From Candidatus Magasanikiibacteriota bacterium (lineage in GTDB: Bacteria; Patescibacteriota; Patescibacteriia; Magasanikbacterales; UBA922), in assembly GCA_041675185.1 (NCBI GenBank), contig JBAYUH010000002.1, positions 1,052-65,051 of the forward strand: a stretch of DNA of 64,000 bases, given 5' to 3'. A model generated the notes under the pieces. It made no database searches. It was not told the origin of the DNA and worked only from the letters and a program-made list of their open reading frames with translations. The translations under genes were made by a program, and so were the position numbers. Positions within the stretch are counted from its first letter, which is position 1, and every line of letters begins with the position of its first letter. Below are positions 4,116-63,529 of this stretch, piece by piece.

Positions 4116-4400
4116 ATGCCTAAAAAAGAAGATAATAAAACAATTGGTATTAGAATAAGATTTTGGACTAATGATTTACCCGGTAAAGTTGGGAAAGATC
4201 ACAAACAAACTCCATGCTGGAGTTGTGGTGTGGTTATTATAGAAGCTAATAGAACAAAAGGTATTTCATCAGATAGTGAGGTATTCCATTATGTTGATGA
4301 CATTCCAAGAGCTGTTAAAGAAGTAATGAAAAGAGCGAAAATTGCTGTAGTGGAAAATGTGGCTAGTACTGACAGAGCAAAAAAGAGGATAGGAAAATAA
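4116..4400 (+). CDS. Hypothetical 94-aa protein
   Basis: Clean ORF 11 nt after the previous gene. Contains a CWSCG pair and no known motif. Confidence 0.4.
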   Translation: MPKKEDNKTIGIRIRFWTNDLPGKVGKDHKQTPCWSCGVVIIEANRTKGISSDSEVFHYVDDIPRAVKEVMKRAKIAVVENVASTDRAKKRIGK

Positions 4401-4467
4401 TAAATACCTCAGTGGATGTCATTAGTGTTTATGAGTTTTTAAAAAAATATAATTTTATTTTTATATT

Positions 4468-5298
4468 ATGCAAAAACAATTTTTAGTAGGTAGATACTAT
4501 TTCGACACGCTTTTTCGGGATGAAGCTAATAAGTCATTTATTTCTGATTTAACAAAGAAGCCTACTTTTGAAGAAGGTAATATTGGATATGCTTTAGCAA
4601 ATACATCTTTCGAGAAGGTGGGTGAAAGTAAGGAAAGCTTTTTGAGAGGAACATTCGCTAAATTTAAAATTAAGGATTATTACAAAAAATATCTCAAAAA
4701 AGAAAATGGCTTTCAAGAATCCATAACGGATAACAAAGTTGAATCTCAAATTGAATTTTTTCTCCACCATCCGTCCCATCTTATTTTTATTGAAAAATCT
4801 TCACAAATAAGAGAAAATATTTTTAAAAATAAATTCATTAAAATTTACGAAAAAAATACCTCAGTCACCAAGCCAAATATGGGTCTTGATTTTTTATTTG
4901 ATGAAAAAGATGTATATGAAGAAATAAAAAGTTGGGATAGAATAGTTAAAGCTAAATTTAATGATTTACGACCATCTAACCCGCGAATGGATCCACACTT
5001 TGAAAAAATTGAGGAATTATTAAAGGAAACAAAAAGTGATCGTTCTAAATTAGAATTTAAAATTGATGATCCAGATAGCACTAATTCCCTCGATTCAGAA
5101 AGTGTACTTATTAAACAAGCTCTCGCTTTGTCATCATATGGATATGGGAATGCAAATTTTGATGGGTTTAAAGGTAAAAATACAACTAATATCAAAACAA
5201 AAAAGTTTGTTAAATCAGTAAAACTTGATTTTGATTCAGAAACTCCCTTTAGTGTTGTAATAGATTTTATTGAAAAAGACGAAAAAGGAGAAATGTGA
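4468..5298 (+). CDS. Hypothetical 276-aa protein
   Basis: Long ORF in AT-rich context, same strand and operon-like spacing. No recognisable motif. Confidence 0.5.
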   Translation: MQKQFLVGRYYFDTLFRDEANKSFISDLTKKPTFEEGNIGYALANTSFEKVGESKESFLRGTFAKFKIKDYYKKYLKKENGFQESITDNKVESQIEFFLHHPSHLIFIEKSSQIRENIFKNKFIKIYEKNTSVTKPNMGLDFLFDEKDVYEEIKSWDRIVKAKFNDLRPSNPRMDPHFEKIEELLKETKSDRSKLEFKIDDPDSTNSLDSESVLIKQALALSSYGYGNANFDGFKGKNTTNIKTKKFVKSVKLDFDSETPFSVVIDFIEKDEKGEM

Positions 5299-5311
5299 TA
5301 TAATACTAGAT

Positions 5312-5842
5312 ATGAGTACTAATCTTGAAAAAAAATTTGGGTTTTTCTCAAAGATGTTCCAATTTGGTATTGGTAATATTTTTATTTCCCTTGATTTTTT
5401 TGTTGCTTTTTTAGTACTAATACTTTTATTTATTGATAATCACTTTAATTTAAAAATTTTTATTTCGATTGCAGAGGAAAGAAATGCCTATGTTCAGGTT
5501 ATTTTAAGTGCTTCTTCGATTCTTTTTGCACTCATTACCACTGCATTATCTATTATTTTATCTTTCTCAACTAGTAACTTTATCAAATTTTTAAAGAAAA
5601 AAGACATGCTAGATAGCGTACTTTTCCCTTTTTGGTTAGGAAATGCAATTTATCTTTTTACTATAATACTTTCCATTGTATATCTTCTACTAGAGCCGGC
5701 GACATGGATAAAAATAATACCATTTTTATTCATGTTTATAATTTTTTTGTTTATATATGCTATTGGTATTACTTTTTCCTTATTACGAACCATAATTCGT
5801 ATTGGTGAATGGATAGCTCAAAATGATGAAGATTTGGCGTAA
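5312..5842 (+). CDS. Hypothetical polytopic membrane protein (~176 aa)
   Basis: ATG at 5312 (the track start at 5270 is TTG and overlaps the previous gene). At least four hydrophobic helices. Confidence 0.45.
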   Translation: MSTNLEKKFGFFSKMFQFGIGNIFISLDFFVAFLVLILLFIDNHFNLKIFISIAEERNAYVQVILSASSILFALITTALSIILSFSTSNFIKFLKKKDMLDSVLFPFWLGNAIYLFTIILSIVYLLLEPATWIKIIPFLFMFIIFLFIYAIGITFSLLRTIIRIGEWIAQNDEDLA

Positions 5843-8763: not shown

Positions 8764-9531
8764 ATGAAAACACGAACAAGCATTTTATTATTTTCTTTTG
8801 TAGCAGGTATTACTTTATTAGGTGCTGGTTGTACCAACAACACTGATATTGTCATCCCTCCAGAAACAGCAACACAACCAACTGCTATTCAAAACAACCC
8901 AACACCACAACCAATAGTTAAACCATACATAAAAGTAATCTACCCAAATGGCAACGAAATATTTAACCCAGGACAAATCGTTACCATAAAATGGGATTCA
9001 GATGGCGTTGACAAAATCTATTTAAGTATGGTAAACGGAGGGAAAGAATTTGGACAAATCGCAGAAAACAGTATTGATGCCAGTCTCAAAGAATATACCT
9101 GGACAGTACCTGACAATTTCGCAGGAGTAGAGTCTGGATACAAAATATTTATTAGTAATAACTCTGTAAACGAAGATATTCGTGATTCTTCTAACGGAAC
9201 ATTTAGTATTAAATCTGCTCCAGTTGCTGTCCAACCATTCTTAAAATTAACAGCACCGACAGGCGATCAACAATTTAAAATTGGTCAGAAAGTAACTATC
9301 AGTTGGACATCCAGTGGTGTAAACAAAGTTTATCTTAGTCTTGTCAACGGCGGGAAAGAATTTGGACAGATCACAGAAAACGGTATTGATGCCTCACTTG
9401 GCAAATATGAATGGACTGTCCCAGACATGTCGGACTTGGGCACAACTGGTTACAAAATTTTCATAACCAACAATGAAGCAGTCAATGAATTACGCGACTC
9501 ATCTTCTGTATCATTTTCGATTGTTAAATAA
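8764..9531 (+). CDS. Secreted lipoprotein with two tandem ~108-aa Ser/Thr-rich 'GPI-anchored/Kre9_KNH-like' (PF10342-type) domains
   Basis: Signal peptide plus lipobox LGAGC. There are two internal repeats, each beginning KIYLSMVNGGKEFGQI / KVYLSLVNGGKEFGQI and about 60% identical. Confidence 0.55.
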   Translation: MKTRTSILLFSFVAGITLLGAGCTNNTDIVIPPETATQPTAIQNNPTPQPIVKPYIKVIYPNGNEIFNPGQIVTIKWDSDGVDKIYLSMVNGGKEFGQIAENSIDASLKEYTWTVPDNFAGVESGYKIFISNNSVNEDIRDSSNGTFSIKSAPVAVQPFLKLTAPTGDQQFKIGQKVTISWTSSGVNKVYLSLVNGGKEFGQITENGIDASLGKYEWTVPDMSDLGTTGYKIFITNNEAVNELRDSSSVSFSIVK

Positions 9532-9577
9532 TACAATTGTATATTCATAAATCACCAATTCATAAACATAAAAATAT

Positions 9578-10204
9578 ATGAAAAAAATAATTTCACTGGC
9601 ATCACTATCATTATTTCTCTTACTTGGTTTTGGATGTCAAACTCAAAAACAAGAACAAAATACTACTCTACCACCCGCAGTCGAGGAATTACAAACTCAA
9701 ACAGTTTCTGAAAATAAAAAACAAAATACTAGTGAAACTACTAATAATCCAACAAAAGTTGGAGTCACTCTTTACAAAGGTTTATGGTTTGATATTCAAT
9801 ATCCACAAAATTTCAATGCAACACCAACAACACAAACTGATGAAGCATATTTCTTGTCTCCAGAAGGAAATGTAGAATTTTTTGTCTATTCTCCACTCTG
9901 GTCTGGAACTCCAAAAAATTATTTGACAATGGCTTCAAACGAAGAGTTGGTAAGTGAAAAAATTGAAGAAACAAAAGCAAGTCAACAACCTAGACAATAT
10001 GGCGACAAAATCACTCGTTGGGTTACTATCAAAGCCAAAGATGGTTCATACTATCGTTCATTTGTATCTATCAAAGAACAAGTCGATACAGGAAGTGAAT
10101 TACATCATGTATTTGGTATTAAGTACAAGGACAATACTTCTTATCAAAAATACAGAGATGATTATATTACTTTCAAAGAATCTCTACATCAATATTCTGA
10201 TTAG
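9578..10204 (+). CDS. Hypothetical lipoprotein
   Basis: Signal peptide with lipobox GFGC. No known motif. Confidence 0.45.
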   Translation: MKKIISLASLSLFLLLGFGCQTQKQEQNTTLPPAVEELQTQTVSENKKQNTSETTNNPTKVGVTLYKGLWFDIQYPQNFNATPTTQTDEAYFLSPEGNVEFFVYSPLWSGTPKNYLTMASNEELVSEKIEETKASQQPRQYGDKITRWVTIKAKDGSYYRSFVSIKEQVDTGSELHHVFGIKYKDNTSYQKYRDDYITFKESLHQYSD

Positions 10205-10276
10205 TAATATTAGACAAATCAAAAAAGCAACTACTAAGTTGCTTTTTTATTTTCAAATTTTATTGACTTAATGGGT

Positions 10277-11275: not shown

Positions 11276-11995
11276 TTAATGAATATGTTCATGTGTATGA
11301 AACAAACCAGTTTGACTTCCATACAACTTTTGTAAAACTTCTGGTGTAATTACTACTTCTGGTGCACCAAAACACACCATTTCTTTGTTTAGACAAATTA
11401 CTGACTTGGTATATTTGTTGACAATATTTAATTCGTGCGAAACTATGACACAAGTCGTACCTCTAGTTTCATTTATTTTTTTTATCAAATCATAAATAGT
11501 TTTTTCACCAACAATATCTATACCTGTAGAAGGCTCATCAAAAATTAGAATTTCTTTTTCATGTAACAAAGCACGTGCAATCATTACGCGTTGAAATTGT
11601 CCACCAGACAAATAACCCAATTGTTTTTGTTCAATATCTTCTAATCCCACTTCTAGCAAAACTTCTATAATATTTTTTTCATCATGACCTTTTTTGCCAC
11701 ACTTTTCTAGACTCATAAATTCATGCACACTAATAGGAATAGTCCTATCAAATTCAAACTTCTGTGGTACATAACCAATTTTTTGTCTGACATCTTTTGG
11801 TTTTTTGCCATCTATAGTAATACTACCTTTTGTTGGACTAAGCACTCCAATAATATTTTGGAGTAAAGTAGTTTTACCACTGCCATTTGGTCCAATGATA
11901 GCTACAATATCACCTTTGGCAATTTCAAAAGAAACATTTTGCAGAGCTACAAAATCATTGAATTTATAAGTCAGATTTTCGACTTTGATTAGCAT
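11276..11995 (-). CDS. Metal ABC transporter ATP-binding protein (ZnuC/MntA-like)
   Basis: Walker A GPNGSGKTT, ABC signature LSGGQFQRV, and Walker B ILIFDEPSTGID. Confidence 0.8.
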   Translation of the reverse strand: MLIKVENLTYKFNDFVALQNVSFEIAKGDIVAIIGPNGSGKTTLLQNIIGVLSPTKGSITIDGKKPKDVRQKIGYVPQKFEFDRTIPISVHEFMSLEKCGKKGHDEKNIIEVLLEVGLEDIEQKQLGYLSGGQFQRVMIARALLHEKEILIFDEPSTGIDIVGEKTIYDLIKKINETRGTTCVIVSHELNIVNKYTKSVICLNKEMVCFGAPEVVITPEVLQKLYGSQTGLFHTHEHIH

Positions 11996-14810: not shown

Positions 14811-15956
14811 TTAAAACGTTGCTTGCGGTAACGACAAATCACTAAGTTGTGTATAGTTAGACACTAATATTTTTTTGCTTATTAATGTGTTTGGTTCATC
14901 ACCCAAAGCTTGTGTAGACCCATGATCAAGATAATTTACTACCAATTTATTATCTGTGAATTGTATTGATTGTACTCTTACTCTATCACCAAGTAAAATA
15001 TCATTACTACCCACATAACCTTGTGGCGAACTAAGATAGGCATACAAAGAATAAAAACTACCACTTCCACCATCATTTTCTGTGGCAATAAAAGCTATAT
15101 CTTCTAGACCATCATTATTAAAATCCCCTTTCAAATCATAACCTAAATATTTTATCACCATTTTTTCAGCAGAACCTGGAAATAATTTTTTTTCAAAAAC
15201 ACCATTTACAAAAGTAAAAGTATTATTATACGTAGCATTCATATATTCATCATCTACTTTGGCACTATTTACAATTGAGTCAACAATATTATCTACGTCT
15301 GTATAAAATTTGGATTCTTCATCACTACACTGTTGTTGTTGTGGATTATCATAATTCATACATTGTGGCAATTGAGCTACAAAACTTACATCCAACAATT
15401 TCCCATTTCGCTCAGTAGTATATTTATAAGTATTATAAATTGAACCAGCAGCTCCTTCACTAGAAAGACTTACACAATATACTCTATTATTTATACTTTT
15501 TTGTACTTGTTTATTTTGAGCATCTGCACCAACTGTTTCGCACGAAAAAGTACCACTAACCAAAGTAACCTCTGGTGGCCAATTCATAATTTTGACAAAA
15601 TTATAAGTAGACAAACTTGCTAAAGTCTGGAAACTAAGATTACCAGCATCATTTTTGTATAAATGAAAATCCAAAGAAGTATCTTTTGGAACTACTACTG
15701 AAGTTGTAGTTATTTTATTTTCAGGACAAACAGCAAATTCACAATTTGGACCACTCCTCGCCACATAAGAACCATCAGAACAAAGCTTAGCTTCCGTAGT
15801 ACAAGCAGTTTGTCCACCACTACTTTTGTTTGTATTTACAAAAGGTAAAAATTGTTTAGCAAAAAATACAAAAACAATTATTGAAGATACTACACACAAA
15901 ATTAAAAAAGATAACAATACTACTATGGTTTTTTTTGTAATCATACAATTCGTCAA
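14811..15956 (-). CDS. Hypothetical membrane-anchored exported protein with FG-GAP-like Ca-binding repeat
   Basis: N-terminal TM anchor; DLKGDFNNDGLEDIAFIA resembles an FG-GAP repeat; several Cys residues. Confidence 0.4.
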   Translation of the reverse strand: MTNCMITKKTIVVLLSFLILCVVSSIIVFVFFAKQFLPFVNTNKSSGGQTACTTEAKLCSDGSYVARSGPNCEFAVCPENKITTTSVVVPKDTSLDFHLYKNDAGNLSFQTLASLSTYNFVKIMNWPPEVTLVSGTFSCETVGADAQNKQVQKSINNRVYCVSLSSEGAAGSIYNTYKYTTERNGKLLDVSFVAQLPQCMNYDNPQQQQCSDEESKFYTDVDNIVDSIVNSAKVDDEYMNATYNNTFTFVNGVFEKKLFPGSAEKMVIKYLGYDLKGDFNNDGLEDIAFIATENDGGSGSFYSLYAYLSSPQGYVGSNDILLGDRVRVQSIQFTDNKLVVNYLDHGSTQALGDEPNTLISKKILVSNYTQLSDLSLPQATF

Positions 15957-17239: not shown

Positions 17240-17558
17240 ACTTTTATTTTACTATATTTTACAAAAAATTAAAATGGATTTTGATAAATTTTTACTCCAA
17301 CAAAAAACAGCTAGAAAATGCTGTCTTATAGTAGGTACAAAAACCTATTTTGTCAAATGTTTTTTTCATCTTCCAAAATTTCTTTCCTCTATAAAAAATA
17401 ATCAAAATATACGATAAAGATGTCTACTGAAAATCATCTACATGATTTGCAATAGACAACTGGGTTCCTGTGTAAACACTGGAACCCATGTATGCCCTCC
17501 GATGATCACAGACAAGTCGACGTGAGTCGACCGGTATATAAATCACCCACAAAAAACG

Positions 17559-18311
17559 TCAGCGAACAATGAGCTGTTTCAACTCCTTCTTGGAGTTGCA
17601 TACTACTACATTACTCAGACCACGTCCTTTGTTGTTCACTGCCTCAACATTGTCGAGGCTGATATCAAACCTACTCATCTTTGTTTCGGGAAAGTCAAAC
17701 CATCCGACTAACGCAAAAATGTGTCCAGTGTCTGGAATACTAATATGTACCTGGGCATCACTAACTGCCGGCTGGGGCAGATAGACAACACCCCCGACAC
17801 CTTGAGTGAGTGGTTGGACAAAACCACCGCTGACAAAAGGATGATTACCATCCATTGTGTCGTTGTCCAGAATTTCAAATGCGATAATGTTCGCATTATC
17901 ATCATCTTTGTGGAAAAAGCTATAGACCATATCCTCGTCATGATTCCCCTGAGGAACCTCGACGCGGACAGACACACTCTCCACAAATGTTTGTTGATGA
18001 TCGCAGGGTGTTACCATGAACTTCAGCAGAACAGCCTGCTCATCAATCAACACATTGTCGTTCTCTCGAGGGATAATACTAACCACAAAATCCTTACCAG
18101 TACTCTGACAGAGGTGTTTTACCTCCTCATAAGAAACTGGACAATTGATGGTGTTAACGATTTCAACAGAATGTTGCGGGACAGTCTGTTGATGATTGGT
18201 TGAAGTGGTGTTTCCATCATCCTCGCATCCAAGGGCGAAGAAAGAAACAAGAAAAGCGGCAAAAAAACGTGACAACATAAAGCACTCTTTTCCTCTTGAA
18301 GTGACTTTCAA
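17559..18311 (-). CDS. Hypothetical lipoprotein encoded in a GC-rich, compositionally atypical segment
   Basis: Signal peptide plus lipobox FALGC. GC content and codon usage (GAC, CTC, GGC codons) differ from the surrounding genes. Both strands are open here, as expected for higher-GC DNA. Confidence 0.5.
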   Translation of the reverse strand: MKVTSRGKECFMLSRFFAAFLVSFFALGCEDDGNTTSTNHQQTVPQHSVEIVNTINCPVSYEEVKHLCQSTGKDFVVSIIPRENDNVLIDEQAVLLKFMVTPCDHQQTFVESVSVRVEVPQGNHDEDMVYSFFHKDDDNANIIAFEILDNDTMDGNHPFVSGGFVQPLTQGVGGVVYLPQPAVSDAQVHISIPDTGHIFALVGWFDFPETKMSRFDISLDNVEAVNNKGRGLSNVVVCNSKKELKQLIVR

Positions 18312-18471
18312 ACAACGAAGTTACCCAAAACATTGTTAGTGTCTTAGATAACGCAAAATTATAGAATAAAATTGTCATTTTGTCAATATGTAAAATTAGT
18401 TAAACATGTGTACAAAAAAGACTCCCAATAGGAGCCATATTCTTGTATATTATTCAATTATCCAAAATTTA

Positions 18472-19350
18472 TCAAACAAAAAACAACTCCCCATGAAAAT
18501 CTTTGGAAACATCTACATTATTATCAGCATACAAAATTACATATTGAAAACTATATACTTCCAACAAAATTTCTTTGTCCACCATATATAGACAAGTTGC
18601 CAAAGCATCAGCCAACATCGCACTATCAGCTATTACCCACGTTGCCAAAACATCTTTTGAAGATTCCAAAGTTTTTGGATTTATTATGTGATTGAATTTC
18701 CCCCATTTACGACGACTACCAGAAGAAGCGCAGATACTTTGATTACAAATCTCAGCCACACCAATCACTTGTGAAAAATCATTAGGATTTTCCAAACCCA
18801 CACGCATTTTTTCTTGTCCATTATTTTGATAAAAAATATCTCCACCAGCATCCACACAAAAATAATTTATATTAGAATCAATCAACATCTGACTCACAAT
18901 ATCTATTATATATCCTTTACCACAAGCACCAAAATCCAAAACTGTTTTCTGTTTTACAGTCAAATTTGGAAAATCATAATCCAACACATCTTCCCAAGGT
19001 AGTGGCTTTGTTATAATTTCTTTTTGTTTTAGAGAATATTTAGCATCATAACCAGCGTCCACCAAAGTCTTACCAATAAGTGGTGTGAAGACACCTTGAG
19101 TCAAGGCATACAAATCATAGTACAAATCAAACAACGGCTTGGCATCATCTGACAAAACATAATTTCCAGGTTTACTAACCATTTTTGAAAGCCAAGAATC
19201 TTCACGAAAACGAGAATAAGTTTGTTCAAATTTTTCTATTCTATTTTTTATTTTCGTAAAAAAATTCGTCTGATCCAAGACAGACGAATCCAAAATGTCA
19301 ATTTGCCAATGAGTACCAATGGCTTCAAATTGAATACTATTTTTAGTCAT
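18472..19350 (-). CDS. apbE: ApbE-family FAD:protein FMN transferase (flavin transferase)
   Basis: ApbE-like motifs FEAIGTHWQIDI, DFGACGKGY and ADALAT. No N-terminal signal peptide is apparent. Confidence 0.7.
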   Translation of the reverse strand: MTKNSIQFEAIGTHWQIDILDSSVLDQTNFFTKIKNRIEKFEQTYSRFREDSWLSKMVSKPGNYVLSDDAKPLFDLYYDLYALTQGVFTPLIGKTLVDAGYDAKYSLKQKEIITKPLPWEDVLDYDFPNLTVKQKTVLDFGACGKGYIIDIVSQMLIDSNINYFCVDAGGDIFYQNNGQEKMRVGLENPNDFSQVIGVAEICNQSICASSGSRRKWGKFNHIINPKTLESSKDVLATWVIADSAMLADALATCLYMVDKEILLEVYSFQYVILYADNNVDVSKDFHGELFFV

Positions 19351-19355
19351 ATATA

Positions 19356-19931
19356 TTATAAAGAAGCTTGTGATTTTATTATAGAAACAGCATTATTGAA
19401 ACCTTGAGTAGTCAAAGAAGCTCCAGCAACTCTATTTAAATTTAGAGAACTGATGTCTTTACCCACAACTTGTGATTTTAAATTATCAGAAAACATATTT
19501 TGATAAGCAAGGGCAGTTCTGTTATTAGACATAGTCTGAACATTAACATCTGTAACAATATCATTTTGCAATGTAAGACTTATTCCTATAGTTTCTTGAC
19601 CACTAGGAGCACGGTATTGCCCTGTAGTAGAATAACTTCCATCTTTATATTGATTCATCATACTACCATTACCACCCATCATACCAGAACCAGAAGTACC
19701 TGCACTATTATTTGAAACAGTGGTAGGCGCTACTTGTTCACTAGTATTAGAATTTCCCATCACACTAGGATCAATATTTTGAGTAATTGGAATTTGTGAG
19801 ACACTATTATTTGAATCAATAGGTGTCTGATTAGTGGTACTAGTAACTCCACAACCACTAGCCAAAAAAGCCAAAGTAAGTACAGCAACTAATACTAACA
19901 AATTTGGTAAATTACTTATCTGTTTTTTCAT
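19356..19931 (-). CDS. FMN-binding-domain lipoprotein (probable ApbE flavinylation substrate)
   Basis: Lipobox LASGC and a low-complexity S/T/N/G linker. The C-terminal ~90 aa (YKDGSYSTTGQY...VTDVNVQ...RVAGASLTTQGFNNAV) fit the FMN_bind consensus, with S in place of the usual flavinylated T. Confidence 0.5.
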   Translation of the reverse strand: MKKQISNLPNLLVLVAVLTLAFLASGCGVTSTTNQTPIDSNNSVSQIPITQNIDPSVMGNSNTSEQVAPTTVSNNSAGTSGSGMMGGNGSMMNQYKDGSYSTTGQYRAPSGQETIGISLTLQNDIVTDVNVQTMSNNRTALAYQNMFSDNLKSQVVGKDISSLNLNRVAGASLTTQGFNNAVSIIKSQASL

Positions 19932-20135
19932 ATAAAAAAATTAAAATTAAGACCGAACTATTATAACATACTTCGACATAACAGCCTATACTGCAATATG
20001 AACATTAAATTAAATAGTATACTAATTCTATATAATATACTACGCAAATAATAAAACTTTTATTTCAAACAAAGCTTTTTGGCTTAATCTAAAACAAAAA
20101 AACAGAACCTTCCAGCTCTGTCTTTGATAATTTTA

Positions 20136-44095: not shown

Positions 44096-44788
44096 TTACC
44101 TCAAAGAAATACCACTATTATTTTTGTAAATTACGTTCCTAACCTCTTCAGTAGTTTTACCATGTTTGTTCTTGGCTTCTATTACAAAAGTATTGATACC
44201 TGGTAGAAGATTTATACTCTGGCTGAAGTTTCCATTTTCATCATTTTTTACCAATTCATCATTGATAGTGATTTGAATTTCTGGATCAGTTTTACCATTG
44301 ACGTCTACAAAATTGCTATTACTAATAAAACCATTTTCTGGAGATATTACTAATAGAATTGGTGGCGTCAAAACATTTTTGACATGAAAACCAAGAAAAA
44401 GAAGAAGTAAAAACACAAATATACCAAAAAATGAAAACCGTAAAATATTTGGTATATTACTAAAATGGTATTTTCTGTATTTTAAATTTGGCGTATTATC
44501 TTTTGGTGTTTCGTATGTCAATTCTTCGTTGACAAATTGCTCTACAAAACACATCGCATCCTCTCCCAAAGCTTGGACATACTTTTTTACAAAATTCTTT
44601 TTGTACAAAGAAGATTGTGGCAAATCCGAAAAACGACATTCTTCGATTGCTCTTAAATATTCTTTGTTTATTTTGGTTTTTGATTCTAATTCTAACAAAG
44701 AAATATGTTTTTCTTCACGCAAAGCTTTGAGACGAACACAAATTCTTGTGGTAGGTAACAAACATTTCTTTTTGAAAGATACTTCCAT
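44096..44788 (-). CDS. RodZ-like protein: N-terminal Xre-type HTH, single TM segment, C-terminal domain
   Basis: HTH LKALREEKHISLLELESKTKINKEYLRAIE, then TM FGIFVFLLLLFLGF. The architecture matches RodZ. Confidence 0.45.
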   Translation of the reverse strand: MEVSFKKKCLLPTTRICVRLKALREEKHISLLELESKTKINKEYLRAIEECRFSDLPQSSLYKKNFVKKYVQALGEDAMCFVEQFVNEELTYETPKDNTPNLKYRKYHFSNIPNILRFSFFGIFVFLLLLFLGFHVKNVLTPPILLVISPENGFISNSNFVDVNGKTDPEIQITINDELVKNDENGNFSQSINLLPGINTFVIEAKNKHGKTTEEVRNVIYKNNSGISLR

Positions 44789-61566: not shown

Positions 61567-61621
61567 TCTAAGCCCAAATTACAATTTGAAGATACATTTT
61601 TACTCATTTAAAAATACACTT

Positions 61622-62530
61622 ATGTTACTGATTTTAAAAGAAAAGAAAGGTATCAAAAATAATGTAAACAAAACAATACCAATTCTAAAAAAGAAACTCA
61701 TCAAAAAAGGAATTGCTGTAGACACTTCCAATTTTGAAGAAGTAGAATTATTTATTGAAAAAAATAATGTGAGAGCTTTCATCGAAAAAAAGCCTTTGGA
61801 AAAATACAAAGTAATTTTTTCAAGACAAGTCGGAAAAAAAAGAAATCTAGCCTTTATATTATCTGAACTTTGTAAACAAAAAGGAATATTTTATATAGAC
61901 AAAGTCTATAGCTCAATCAATGACGCCACTAAACTAAAACAAACAACACTACTAGCACTAAACAATATTCCTGTACCAAAAACTTATTTTACTTCAATTT
62001 ATAACAAAAAAACATTGACAACTGCTGAAGAATTTATTGGATTTCCCATGGTTATAAAAATTTCTAGTAGTAGAAAAGGGTTGGGAGTATTTTTGGCAAA
62101 AAATAAAATAGAAGCAAAACAAATAATGACCAGAGAAAAATCTACTGAAATTATTATTCAAGAATTCATACCTAACACTTTTGATTATCGTATATTAGTT
62201 CTAGGAAAAACTATTGGTTGTATTATCAAAAGAGAACGACAAATCAATAAAAAAGAATTTAGAAACAATGTCTATCTTGGAGCTAGTGAAACTTTTTTGA
62301 AAATTTCAAGTGTAGATAAAATAATAAAAAAAATAGCTTTGAAATCTGCAAAAATCGCCAACATCCAAGTAGCTGGTGTAGATATTGTAGTCGATGATAA
62401 TGGACAACCTTGCGTTTTTGAAGTCAACAGCTCCCCAGCTTTTACCTTTGATGAAAAGATCTCCAATGAGATTGAATCTTTGTCTGAATATCTATATTTA
62501 TGCCACAAGAAAAAATTTCTTGGTAAATAA
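61622..62530 (+). CDS. ATP-grasp ligase, RimK-like (alpha-L-glutamate ligase family)
   Basis: GFPMVIKISSSRKGLGVF, IIQEFIPNTFDYRILVLG and VAGVDIVVDDNGQPCVFEVNSSPAF. The ATG at 61622 is preferred over the TTG at 61586. Confidence 0.6.
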   Translation: MLLILKEKKGIKNNVNKTIPILKKKLIKKGIAVDTSNFEEVELFIEKNNVRAFIEKKPLEKYKVIFSRQVGKKRNLAFILSELCKQKGIFYIDKVYSSINDATKLKQTTLLALNNIPVPKTYFTSIYNKKTLTTAEEFIGFPMVIKISSSRKGLGVFLAKNKIEAKQIMTREKSTEIIIQEFIPNTFDYRILVLGKTIGCIIKRERQINKKEFRNNVYLGASETFLKISSVDKIIKKIALKSAKIANIQVAGVDIVVDDNGQPCVFEVNSSPAFTFDEKISNEIESLSEYLYLCHKKKFLGK

Positions 62531-62578: not shown

Positions 62579-63529
62579 ATGTTTCTTACAATTATTATTC
62601 TAATAATTGGTATTGCTATTTTAATTTATGGTGCTGACATTTTGGTCAAAGGCTCAGCCTCAATTGCCAAAAAACTTGGTATTCCATCTATTGTCATTGG
62701 TCTGACAGTAGTAGCTTTTGGGACATCAGCTCCAGAATTAGCTGTCAATTTATTTTCTATAGCCAAAGGCACGACAGATCTAGCTATTGCTCATATTATT
62801 GGTAGTAATATAGCCAATATTTTGCTTATCCTTGGTATCTCAGCTATTATTTTTCCACTAGCAGTCAAAAAAAATACAACCTACAAAGAAATACCTTTTG
62901 CCTTATTGGCAGTCGTAGTTGTGGCAATTTTTAGCAATGATGCTCTAATAAATGGCCATGGTAACAATATCCTAGACCGCACTGAAGGTATTGTTCTTAT
63001 TTTATTTTTTATACTTTTCCTTTATTATATTTTTGGATTAAGTAAGACAAAAGATAAACATGAAAAAATAAAAACTTATTCATTGGGAAAATCTTTCTTA
63101 TTATTTTTCATTGGATTAGTAGCTTTGATAATTGGTGGAAAAATAATTGTGAACAATGCTGTCATATTAGCCAGACTGGCTGGTATGTCTGAGAGATTAA
63201 TTGGTCTTACTGTTATAGCTCTTGGCACATCTTTACCTGAATTGGCCATATCTATAGTAGCAGCAATTCGCAAACAAGCAGACATAGCCATTGGCAATGT
63301 AGTCGGTAGTAATATTTTCAATGTTTTCTGGGTATTAGGTTTGACAGCTATTATCAAACCAATTCCTTTTGATACCAGCATCAATATTGATGTCCTTATG
63401 TCTATTGTCGCCACACTCTTATTATTTTTCTTTATGTTTATCCATGATAAACATAGATTGAATCGTTGGCAAGGTATATTTTTTGTTTTACTTTATGTGG
63501 CTTATATTACGTTTATTATTGTGAAGTAA
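62579..63529 (+). CDS. Ca2+/Na+ (cation) antiporter, CaCA family (YrbG-like)
   Basis: Duplicated alpha-repeats GTSAPELAV / GTSLPELAISI and GSNIANILLILG / GSNIFNVFWVLG. Confidence 0.8.
   Translation: MFLTIIILIIGIAILIYGADILVKGSASIAKKLGIPSIVIGLTVVAFGTSAPELAVNLFSIAKGTTDLAIAHIIGSNIANILLILGISAIIFPLAVKKNTTYKEIPFALLAVVVVAIFSNDALINGHGNNILDRTEGIVLILFFILFLYYIFGLSKTKDKHEKIKTYSLGKSFLLFFIGLVALIIGGKIIVNNAVILARLAGMSERLIGLTVIALGTSLPELAISIVAAIRKQADIAIGNVVGSNIFNVFWVLGLTAIIKPIPFDTSINIDVLMSIVATLLLFFFMFIHDKHRLNRWQGIFFVLLYVAYITFIIVK

Follow-up and report, generated by a model that had tools for sequence, protein, structure and literature searches.

Phage morons are single open reading frames (ORFs) with their own sigma-70 promoter and terminator and a deviant GC content, which occur in several backgrounds, are inserted between two otherwise adjacent genes and can code for an envelope protein; they often encode lipoproteins, for instance lambda Bor, phi80/N15 Cor and T5 Llp. 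Stem-loop-stabilised mRNAs form another group and include those with the ompA 5' untranslated region (UTR), the Bacillus aprE leader, the Lactobacillus S-layer slpA leader and the Bacillus thuringiensis cry 3' retroregulator. ApbE substrates, finally, carry a conserved [S/T]GA[S/T] motif in FMN_bind, DUF2271 or DUF3570 domains, and extracytosolic flavinylation is reported to be strikingly under-represented in the Candidate Phyla Radiation (CPR) (PMC8238504). Here we describe a GC-rich island at positions 17440-18330 of a 64-kb stretch of DNA from a Candidatus Magasanikiibacteriota bacterium (the whole stretch is called the window below). The island encodes a single lipoprotein on the minus strand, directly downstream of apbE. 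The explanation that we favour, with a probability of about 0.6, is that the island is a self-contained, acquired transcription unit for an orphan surface lipoprotein that has no detectable functional tie to ApbE.

The unit shares all of the moron features named above, but it lies among chromosomal housekeeping genes (DEAD helicase, apbE, lytR) and has no phage relative in the collections searched, it appears to have replaced a resident gene, and it combines conserved UTR hairpins with an unusually folded coding RNA. Because it has three of the four usual moron features and lacks the phage context, it is best described as moron-like and not as a moron. A 5'-end stem-loop, stable 3' hairpins, a consensus promoter and an envelope-protein gene are held in common with the stem-loop-stabilised mRNAs; the coding region of the island, however, is GC-enriched and over-folded, and the host is an AT-rich CPR bacterium. 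Like the ApbE-dependent flavoproteins (FMN_bind, DUF2271, DUF3570; PplA/FmnB-type; PMC8238504), the product is an extracytoplasmic lipoprotein encoded beside apbE and an FMN_bind-like lipoprotein. Unlike them, it has neither the motif nor the substrate domains, is predicted to be transcribed alone and shows no conserved association with apbE.

The composition of the island is exceptional within the window. The 64 kb have a GC content of 0.330 and all 800-bp windows average 0.329 (sd 0.031), whereas the region 17440-18330 reaches 0.440 (z = 3.5) and contains the highest-GC 800-bp window of all (0.4475, starting at 17451). Taken from the conserved ATG onwards, the gene has a GC content of 0.443, with 0.567, 0.321 and 0.442 at the first, second and third codon positions (GC1, GC2 and GC3). 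The other ORFs of at least 100 amino acids (aa; n = 51) have a GC3 of 0.233 +/- 0.042 and do not exceed 0.333, so that the island gene stands ~5 sd out; GC1 is raised too (0.567 vs 0.433), while GC2 is ordinary. A reading made from the letters alone (the sequence-only reading) had placed the GC content far above background, and the figures bear this out (GC 0.440 vs 0.329, GC3 0.442 vs 0.233), the composition falling outside the range of the window's ORFs. The long opposite-strand ORF that it reported exists as well (160 aa, 17721-18203). It is a by-product of composition, because the homologs do not conserve it, their antisense open stretches measuring anything between 82 and 163 codons.

The island gene occupies 17559-18278 on the minus strand and encodes 239 aa plus a stop, as supported by the ORF list, family alignments A1 and A4, the ratio of nonsynonymous to synonymous substitution (dN/dS), an AlphaFold2 model and GC3. 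A 250-aa product had been proposed earlier; the corresponding TTG-initiated ORF exists (17559-18311, minus), but all homologs begin at the MLSR methionine, and the likely start is therefore the ATG at 18278. Residues 1-17 form a signal peptide, followed by the lipobox Cys18, a disordered linker to about residue 35 and the beta-sandwich domain. The N-terminus in the window, MLSR-FFAAFLVSFFA, has a charged n-region and a hydrophobic h-region, with an equivalent in all six members of the family. The lipobox reads F-A-L-G-C, with Gly17 and Cys18 invariant across the family; since position -3 is A and not L, it fits only the looser PROSITE form and not [LVI][ASTVI][GAS]C. Both the signal peptide and the FALGC lipobox had been recognised in the sequence-only reading, as had paired cysteines, which are real and conserved as four further invariant residues (C46, C57, C92 and C227). 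The His/Asp-rich region fared less well, as members have anywhere from 3 to 9 His residues, none of them conserved, and two members have G in place of the H of 'GNHDED'. Other invariant motifs are E115-D116-M117, Y166-L167-P168, W193-F194-D195 and a C-terminal LCNxxxxLKQLxVR, and 46 residues in total are invariant at 40-47% protein identity. Because dN/dS is 0.30 between the window gene and its counterpart at locus L001, and because the lipobox and the four cysteines are invariant, the minus-strand ORF reads as a real protein-coding gene, the product of which qualifies by sequence as a bacterial lipoprotein. From the Sec/lipobox signal, the acidic mature protein and the four conserved cysteines we infer export of the protein, a lipid anchor at Cys18 and two structural disulfides.

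Homologs were sought among 5.8 billion clusters (word-indexed search), among 1.84 billion representatives (exhaustive HMMER scan) and with a profile. All of these combined returned just five relatives, giving a family of six among ~15 billion proteins, which occurs only in CPR-like contigs. P0001 (locus L001) is 97% identical to the window protein and comes from the same species; P0002 (L003), P0003 (L004), P0004 (L005) and P0006 (L006-L009 and L011, another Magasanikbacteria lineage) are 40-47% identical to it. A further candidate from the exhaustive search, the 601-aa repeat protein P0005, was dropped as a spurious low-complexity match. The island protein has no significant match in Pfam, NCBIfam, PHROGs or PADLOC; in Pfam there is none at E <= 0.01, and at E <= 10 only DUF5903 (0.035) and HRM (0.19) appear. 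Sequence and profile searches of the PDB gave nothing below E = 0.39, and a first protein-pattern scan of metagenomes for the family gave no match. The window contains neither paralogs of the gene nor silent or partial copies of it, and so no gene-conversion array of the vls type. The island gene thus founds a new, tiny orphan family of surface lipoproteins, and it arrived by ordinary single-gene acquisition.

The anatomy of the locus is that of one transcription unit. The upstream apbE gene (18472-19350, minus; Pfam E = 4.9e-39) lies on the same strand, in agreement with the earlier placement of the island directly downstream of it, and is followed by a predicted intrinsic terminator, GGCTCCTATTGGGAGTC then TTTTTT (18420-18436, minus), just upstream of the island promoter; the interval between apbE and the next gene in loci L013 and L014 has no such hairpin. 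The left junction of the insertion falls between 18471 and 18387. A predicted sigma-70-type promoter (TTGACA, 17 nt, TATAAT; 18358-18386, minus) matches the consensus at 12/12 positions, and in 6/6 loci the hexamers are unchanged, as are parts of the spacer (alignment A3). The mRNA would begin with a 13-bp hairpin (18320-18352, minus; RNAalifold), which starts at about the predicted transcription start; 95.7% of its alignment cells are paired and 5/13 pairs are compensatory, values that drop to 35-49% and 0-1 pairs in slid controls. Three hairpins follow the gene on the same strand. Hairpin 1 (GGTCGAC-TCAC-GTCGACT, 17514-17534) has compensatory changes across lineages in 5/7 pairs, and hairpin 2 (GGGTTCC...GGAACCC, 17461-17488; inverted repeat I23, helix 2 in alignment A2) is 80.5% paired with 3 compensatory pairs. 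Hairpin 3 with its T-rich tail (17396-17461; inverted repeat I3) is terminator-like and forms the right end of the conserved unit. Its sequence, TGTCTAnTGnAAATCA ... TGrTTTnnAnTAGA, is near-invariant across all lineages, with 9/12 pairs never varying and 98.6% of cells paired. Since homology between loci of different genomic contexts extends from the -35 box to a few bases beyond hairpin 3, the conserved entity would be exactly one transcription unit, with predicted control by its own promoter and terminator.

That this unit was acquired can be read from the slot between the DEAD helicase gene and lytR. LytR identities give the order (((window, L006) 81%, L013 76-77%), L014 69-72%), L015 59-62%. 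In the window and L001 the slot holds an FMN_bind-like gene, apbE and the island gene; in L006-L009 and L011 it holds the island gene only, with a 49-nt relic of apbE. In L013 and L014 the FMN_bind-like gene and apbE are followed by a 101-aa DNA_binding_1 (PF01035, MGMT-like) gene, and L015 has none of the four. A relic of the DNA_binding_1 gene persists in the window at 17353-17392 (minus) directly after the island terminator, as established by alignment A5 against the intact L013 and L014 genes. Its 40 nt comprise the last ~11 codons (..KEILEDEKNI*, counterpart ..KKEILESEKAI* in L014), and its stop codon overlaps the -35 box of the predicted lytR promoter (TTGACA, 17 nt, TACTAT; 17328-17356, minus; 10/12 matches and alignment A5). 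Host sequence resumes at this promoter, which is common to the window, L006, L013 and L014. The intact gene in the L013 and L014 slot together with the 3' relic past the island terminator indicates that the island displaced the PF01035 gene, and suggests that the latter was the ancestral occupant. Elsewhere the unit stands directly upstream of the RNase P RNA gene (L003, L005) or between a tRNA and Smr/23S rRNA genes (L004), so that with the DEAD/apbE-lytR slot three unrelated contexts are known. The inserted piece measures 0.97-1.08 kb. The displaced gene, its relic and the occurrence in at least three unrelated contexts uphold the earlier proposal of a horizontally acquired single gene, and the gene is not in place in all relatives, being missing from the slot in L013, L014 and L015. 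The parsimonious history, and on these comparisons a very probable one, is that a single insertion replaced the resident gene before the window and L006 lineages parted. The apbE relic of L006 (1667-1715, …KINHFCVDAGGDIF*) is 88% identical to window positions 18879-18831 and shows that the FMN_bind-like/apbE pair was lost by deletion in that Magasanikbacteria lineage.

After arrival the gene evolved differently from its surroundings. Between the window and L006 the island proteins are 41-44% identical and the flanking proteins (DEAD, LytR, Fur, ABC) 81-92%. Divergence so far above that of the neighbours is as expected for a molecule facing hosts or phages. At four-fold sites in codons for identical amino acids, 63% differ in the island gene, against 27% in the DEAD gene and 39% in lytR. 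P0006 shares 66% identity with P0002, a protein from another context, and only 44% with the syntenic window protein, an incongruence that favours later allele exchange. On a shorter time scale, synonymous divergence (dS) between the window and L001 is 0.30 in the FMN_bind-like gene, 0.13 in apbE and 0.054 in the island gene, against 0.008-0.014 in the flanks; this raised block, from the FMN_bind-like gene through the island gene, points to a recombination tract.

The high GC content is a property of the whole family, every member lying ~9-14 GC points above its flanks: 0.44 against 0.33 in the window, 0.47 against 0.33 in L006 (where GC3 is 0.50 vs 0.24), and 0.50-0.55 against ~0.40 in L003, L004 and L005. 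The insertion is older than the split between the window and L006, with a flank dS of ~0.4-0.8. For both reasons a fresh donor signature is not enough to explain the GC excess. By a rough amelioration estimate, under half of the original excess would be left since insertion, so that with plain amelioration the donor would have needed a GC3 of 0.7 or more; a later refreshing of alleles, or maintenance of the GC content, would lift this requirement. Biased gene conversion from recombination is an unlikely cause, as the more variable FMN_bind-like gene has a GC3 of 0.15, among the lowest values in the window. RNA folding was compared with shuffled sequences: the whole transcript has a folding energy of -322.6 kcal/mol, and dinucleotide shuffles have -266.9 +/- 8.2 (z = -6.8). 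For the coding sequences (CDS) of five lineages, z against synonymous-codon shuffles was -3.4 (-4.0 with 100 shuffles), -6.3, -5.3, -2.8 and -6.7, whereas control CDS gave -0.74 +/- 1.37 with a minimum of -3.38 in the window (n = 24) and -2.4 to +0.4 in L006 (n = 7); family and controls differ with a Mann-Whitney p of 5.5e-4. The GC excess thus appears to be partly maintained, with the mRNA selected for heavy base pairing, and can partly be a foreign signature that is not fully ameliorated.

For the protein, AlphaFold2 with the six-member alignment predicted a disordered N-terminal linker, a beta-sandwich and one helix (predicted TM-score 0.67, mean predicted local distance difference test, pLDDT, 66); a single-sequence model had a pLDDT of 36 and was not used. 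Foldseek agreed with the beta-sandwich matches at low TM-scores, and the viral structure matches of the model were weak and uninformative. The domain is predicted to be a beta-sandwich like those of cohesins or carbohydrate-binding modules (CBM). The nearest structures, namely cohesin modules, CBM-like N-terminal domains of GH33 sialidases and B domains of biofilm adhesins, share 5-14% identity with it and no Pfam membership, the island protein matching no Cohesin or CBM family of Pfam even at E <= 10. Unlike known beta-sandwich lipoproteins, the family has motifs of its own (the four cysteines, EDM, YLP, WFD and the C-terminal LKQLxVR). With a pI of 4.6 the mature protein is acidic; Val, Asp, Gln, His and Pro are abundant in it, Lys, Leu and Ile scarce. 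It is probably a strongly expressed, fast-evolving surface protein for binding or adhesion.

Taken together, we propose that a unit of ~1.0-1.1 kb, made up of a consensus promoter, a 5' stem-loop, one lipoprotein gene and three 3' hairpins of which the last would be the terminator, entered the apbE-lytR interval of an ancestor shared by two Candidatus Magasanikbacteria lineages. It would have overwritten most of the small DNA_binding_1 (MGMT-like) gene, and it is accompanied by no mobility gene. The paired mRNA would stabilise the message, its ends being protected in the manner of 5' stabilisers and 3' retroregulators, and the product would be a surface binding or adhesion lipoprotein and not a redox partner of ApbE. 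We put forward the function and the role in mRNA stability only tentatively. Several observations weigh against this explanation or parts of it. At the window junctions there is no integrase, transposase, direct repeat or target duplication, only repeats at chance level; no homolog occurs in the phage, viral-contig or plasmid collections searched; and none of the six members lies in DNA of matching GC, so that no donor can be named. Only 2/5 AlphaFold2 models exceeded a pLDDT of 57, the mean of 66 is moderate, and the best structural matches (cohesin, CBM and adhesin beta-sandwiches) are generic, with a TM-score of at most 0.37. The folding z of the window copy is at the extreme edge of the controls and not beyond it (control minimum -3.38), and the folding test covers five independent sequences with modest shuffle numbers. 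The structure conservation index of the CDS in the codon-aware alignment is low (0.22). As the consensus energy of the same alignment nevertheless beats codon-column shuffles (z = -3.5), the CDS has pervasive stability with few shared stems. Finally, the silent-site divergence of YibE_F and ZnuA (0.58-0.60) nearly equals that of the island gene (0.63), for which reason silent sites do not prove a later allele replacement.

Among the other explanations, a phage-derived moron, left over or captured from a CPR phage, would suit the lipoprotein product, which might then serve, for instance, in superinfection exclusion or receptor masking, and the location beside stable-RNA genes in L003, L004 and L005 also speaks for it. 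A promoter and a terminator of the unit's own, together with the deviant GC and the several backgrounds, are three of the four usual moron criteria, as listed after Hendrix and colleagues in PMC2920897. We nonetheless consider this origin unlikely, since the flanks (DEAD helicase, apbE, lytR, yibE/F, fur, znuABC) contain no phage genes, PHROGs and PADLOC give no match, and no relative was found in 2.9 million viral contigs and 50,697 phage genomes. A new kind of portable cassette, bounded exactly by the promoter and the invariant terminal hairpin and moving between CPR chromosomal sites, beside stable-RNA genes or on top of resident ones, without a recognisable recombinase, is a somewhat fainter prospect. 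If it were true, the GC-rich, base-paired RNA or DNA ends would be determinants of mobility or allele swapping, and the excess of ~10 GC points in every host would be actively maintained instead of being a fading donor signature. The 3' element was tried as a general cassette mark and rejected: in a metagenome-wide scan it was attached to no other genes, the yield being one more Magasanikbacteria copy of the island gene and two chance matches in unrelated coding regions, and a scan of viral sequences for it found none. Distinctly improbable is an old, vertically inherited resident with a purely intrinsic or selected GC content, lost from L013, L014 and L015 without any acquisition. The shared slot in two lineages with a flank dS of ~0.4-0.8, the GC excess in all hosts, the excess folding of the coding RNA and the lack of mobility genes would all fit it, but the intact PF01035 gene in the exact slot of L013 and L014, its 3' relic in the window, the unrelated contexts elsewhere and a total of six members among ~15 billion proteins argue for acquisition.

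The sequence-only reading had linked the lipoprotein to the flavinylation module, as a possible redox or metal-binding protein. The position directly downstream of apbE on the same strand, the conserved cysteines and the acidic EDM motif speak for such a partner of ApbE and the FMN_bind-like protein, and the ApbE relic of L006 indicates that apbE adjoined the gene when it arrived. Neither [ST]GA[ST] nor even GA[ST], however, occurs in any of the six family members (0/6), whereas the neighbouring FMN_bind-like protein has AGAS; the family has no CxxC and no conserved His, and the island protein matches no FMN_bind, DUF2271, DUF3570 or NQR2/RnfD/E domain of Pfam at E <= 0.01. The gene has its own predicted promoter, with the putative apbE terminator between both genes, and the adjacency is conserved in neither direction: the island gene occurs without apbE in L006-L009 and L003-L005, and apbE without the island gene in L013 and L014. 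The modelled fold, moreover, resembles binding modules and not redox proteins. A functional tie to apbE is thus not supported by these comparisons, the adjacency being a consequence of the landing site of the insertion; with no motif or substrate domain, no Pfam, NCBIfam or PADLOC match and structural matches to binding beta-sandwiches, both the flavinylation link and the redox or metal-binding idea are set aside as very unlikely. Least credible of all, and highly improbable, is that the functional product is an RNA or the plus-strand ORF of 160 aa. The transcript is indeed far more stable than its shuffles (z = -6.8), but the signal peptide, the lipobox and 46 invariant residues are kept at 40-47% identity with a dN/dS of 0.30, whereas the antisense stretches (82 to 163 codons) are unconserved, no Rfam family is matched and the CDS structure index is only 0.22.

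An acquired orphan lipoprotein unit, as favoured here, matters in more than one respect. It is a cleanly reconstructed single-gene acquisition in a CPR genome, in which one can see what gene was displaced, what is left of it and where the insertion begins and ends, a rare situation in such reduced, uncultured bacteria. The family-wide GC excess, the covarying UTR hairpins and the over-folded CDS suggest that composition-based signals of 'foreign DNA' may be partly kept by selection on mRNA, a point that matters for the reading of compositional islands. A tempting guilt-by-association link to extracytoplasmic flavinylation is also removed.

The neighbouring genes and loci gave some further observations. 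Beyond apbE lies a lipoprotein gene with a sub-threshold FMN_bind match, and downstream of the island is a gene of the LytR/LCP family. The LytR protein of the window is 100% identical to one from a Candidatus Magasanikbacteria metagenome-assembled genome, in keeping with a CPR/Patescibacteria host. The FMN_bind-like lipoprotein and ApbE form a two-gene module that recurs in several CPR genomes (window 18472-19931; L013 3472-5561; L014 4125-5551; L002 5842-8765), the putative substrate of which has AGAS, or AGSS in L002, at the expected [S/T]GA[S/T] position. The module of L013 has an extra flavodoxin gene, and in L002 (Gottesmanbacteria) a 506-aa membrane protein follows the pair. The FMN_bind-like gene (window 19356-19931, minus, with the upstream region to ~20030; L001 3349-3909) is hypervariable within the species, as a comparison of two strains shows. 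Its window and L001 copies share 66-69% nucleotide identity with many small in-frame indels and a dN/dS of 0.69, the spacer upstream has a 51-nt indel near 20025, and DNA a few hundred bases away is ~100% identical.

Downstream of lytR a 381-aa protein (window 14811-15956, minus) has a weak match to an XAC2610-related domain. Its counterpart is intact in L007 (385 aa, 4368-5525); in L006 (4376-5532), L008 and L009 it is broken into ORFs of 155 and 223 aa, either a polymorphism due to frameshift or pseudogenisation, or an assembly error. In L006 an IS30-like transposase (HTH_38 + rve; 9256-10248) also takes the place of an ABC-3 permease gene, a replacement that L007 and L008, otherwise collinear with L006, do not show. 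The transposase is ~6.5 kb away from the island gene, with no evident link.

As to sample origin, L001 and L003 come from SRR22387838 and SRR22388055. L005, with the RNase P RNA copy, and L013, which has no island gene at the apbE-lytR slot, come from the same sample (Logan SRR11476867), so the L013 genome may hold the gene at another locus.

Folding in excess of synonymous shuffles was also seen in control genes of ordinary GC content, at 44096-44788 (minus; z = -3.4), 61586-62530 (plus; -3.0), 62579-63529 (plus; -2.6) and 11276-11995 (minus; -2.9). In L004, two GC-rich single ORFs without a Pfam match (1811-2479 and 4276-5037; 0.50-0.52 vs ~0.40) lie among ribosomal-protein and translation genes. 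They were rejected as paralogs of the island gene, as they are related neither to the island protein nor to one another, and the L004 genome may hold several single-gene compositional islets.

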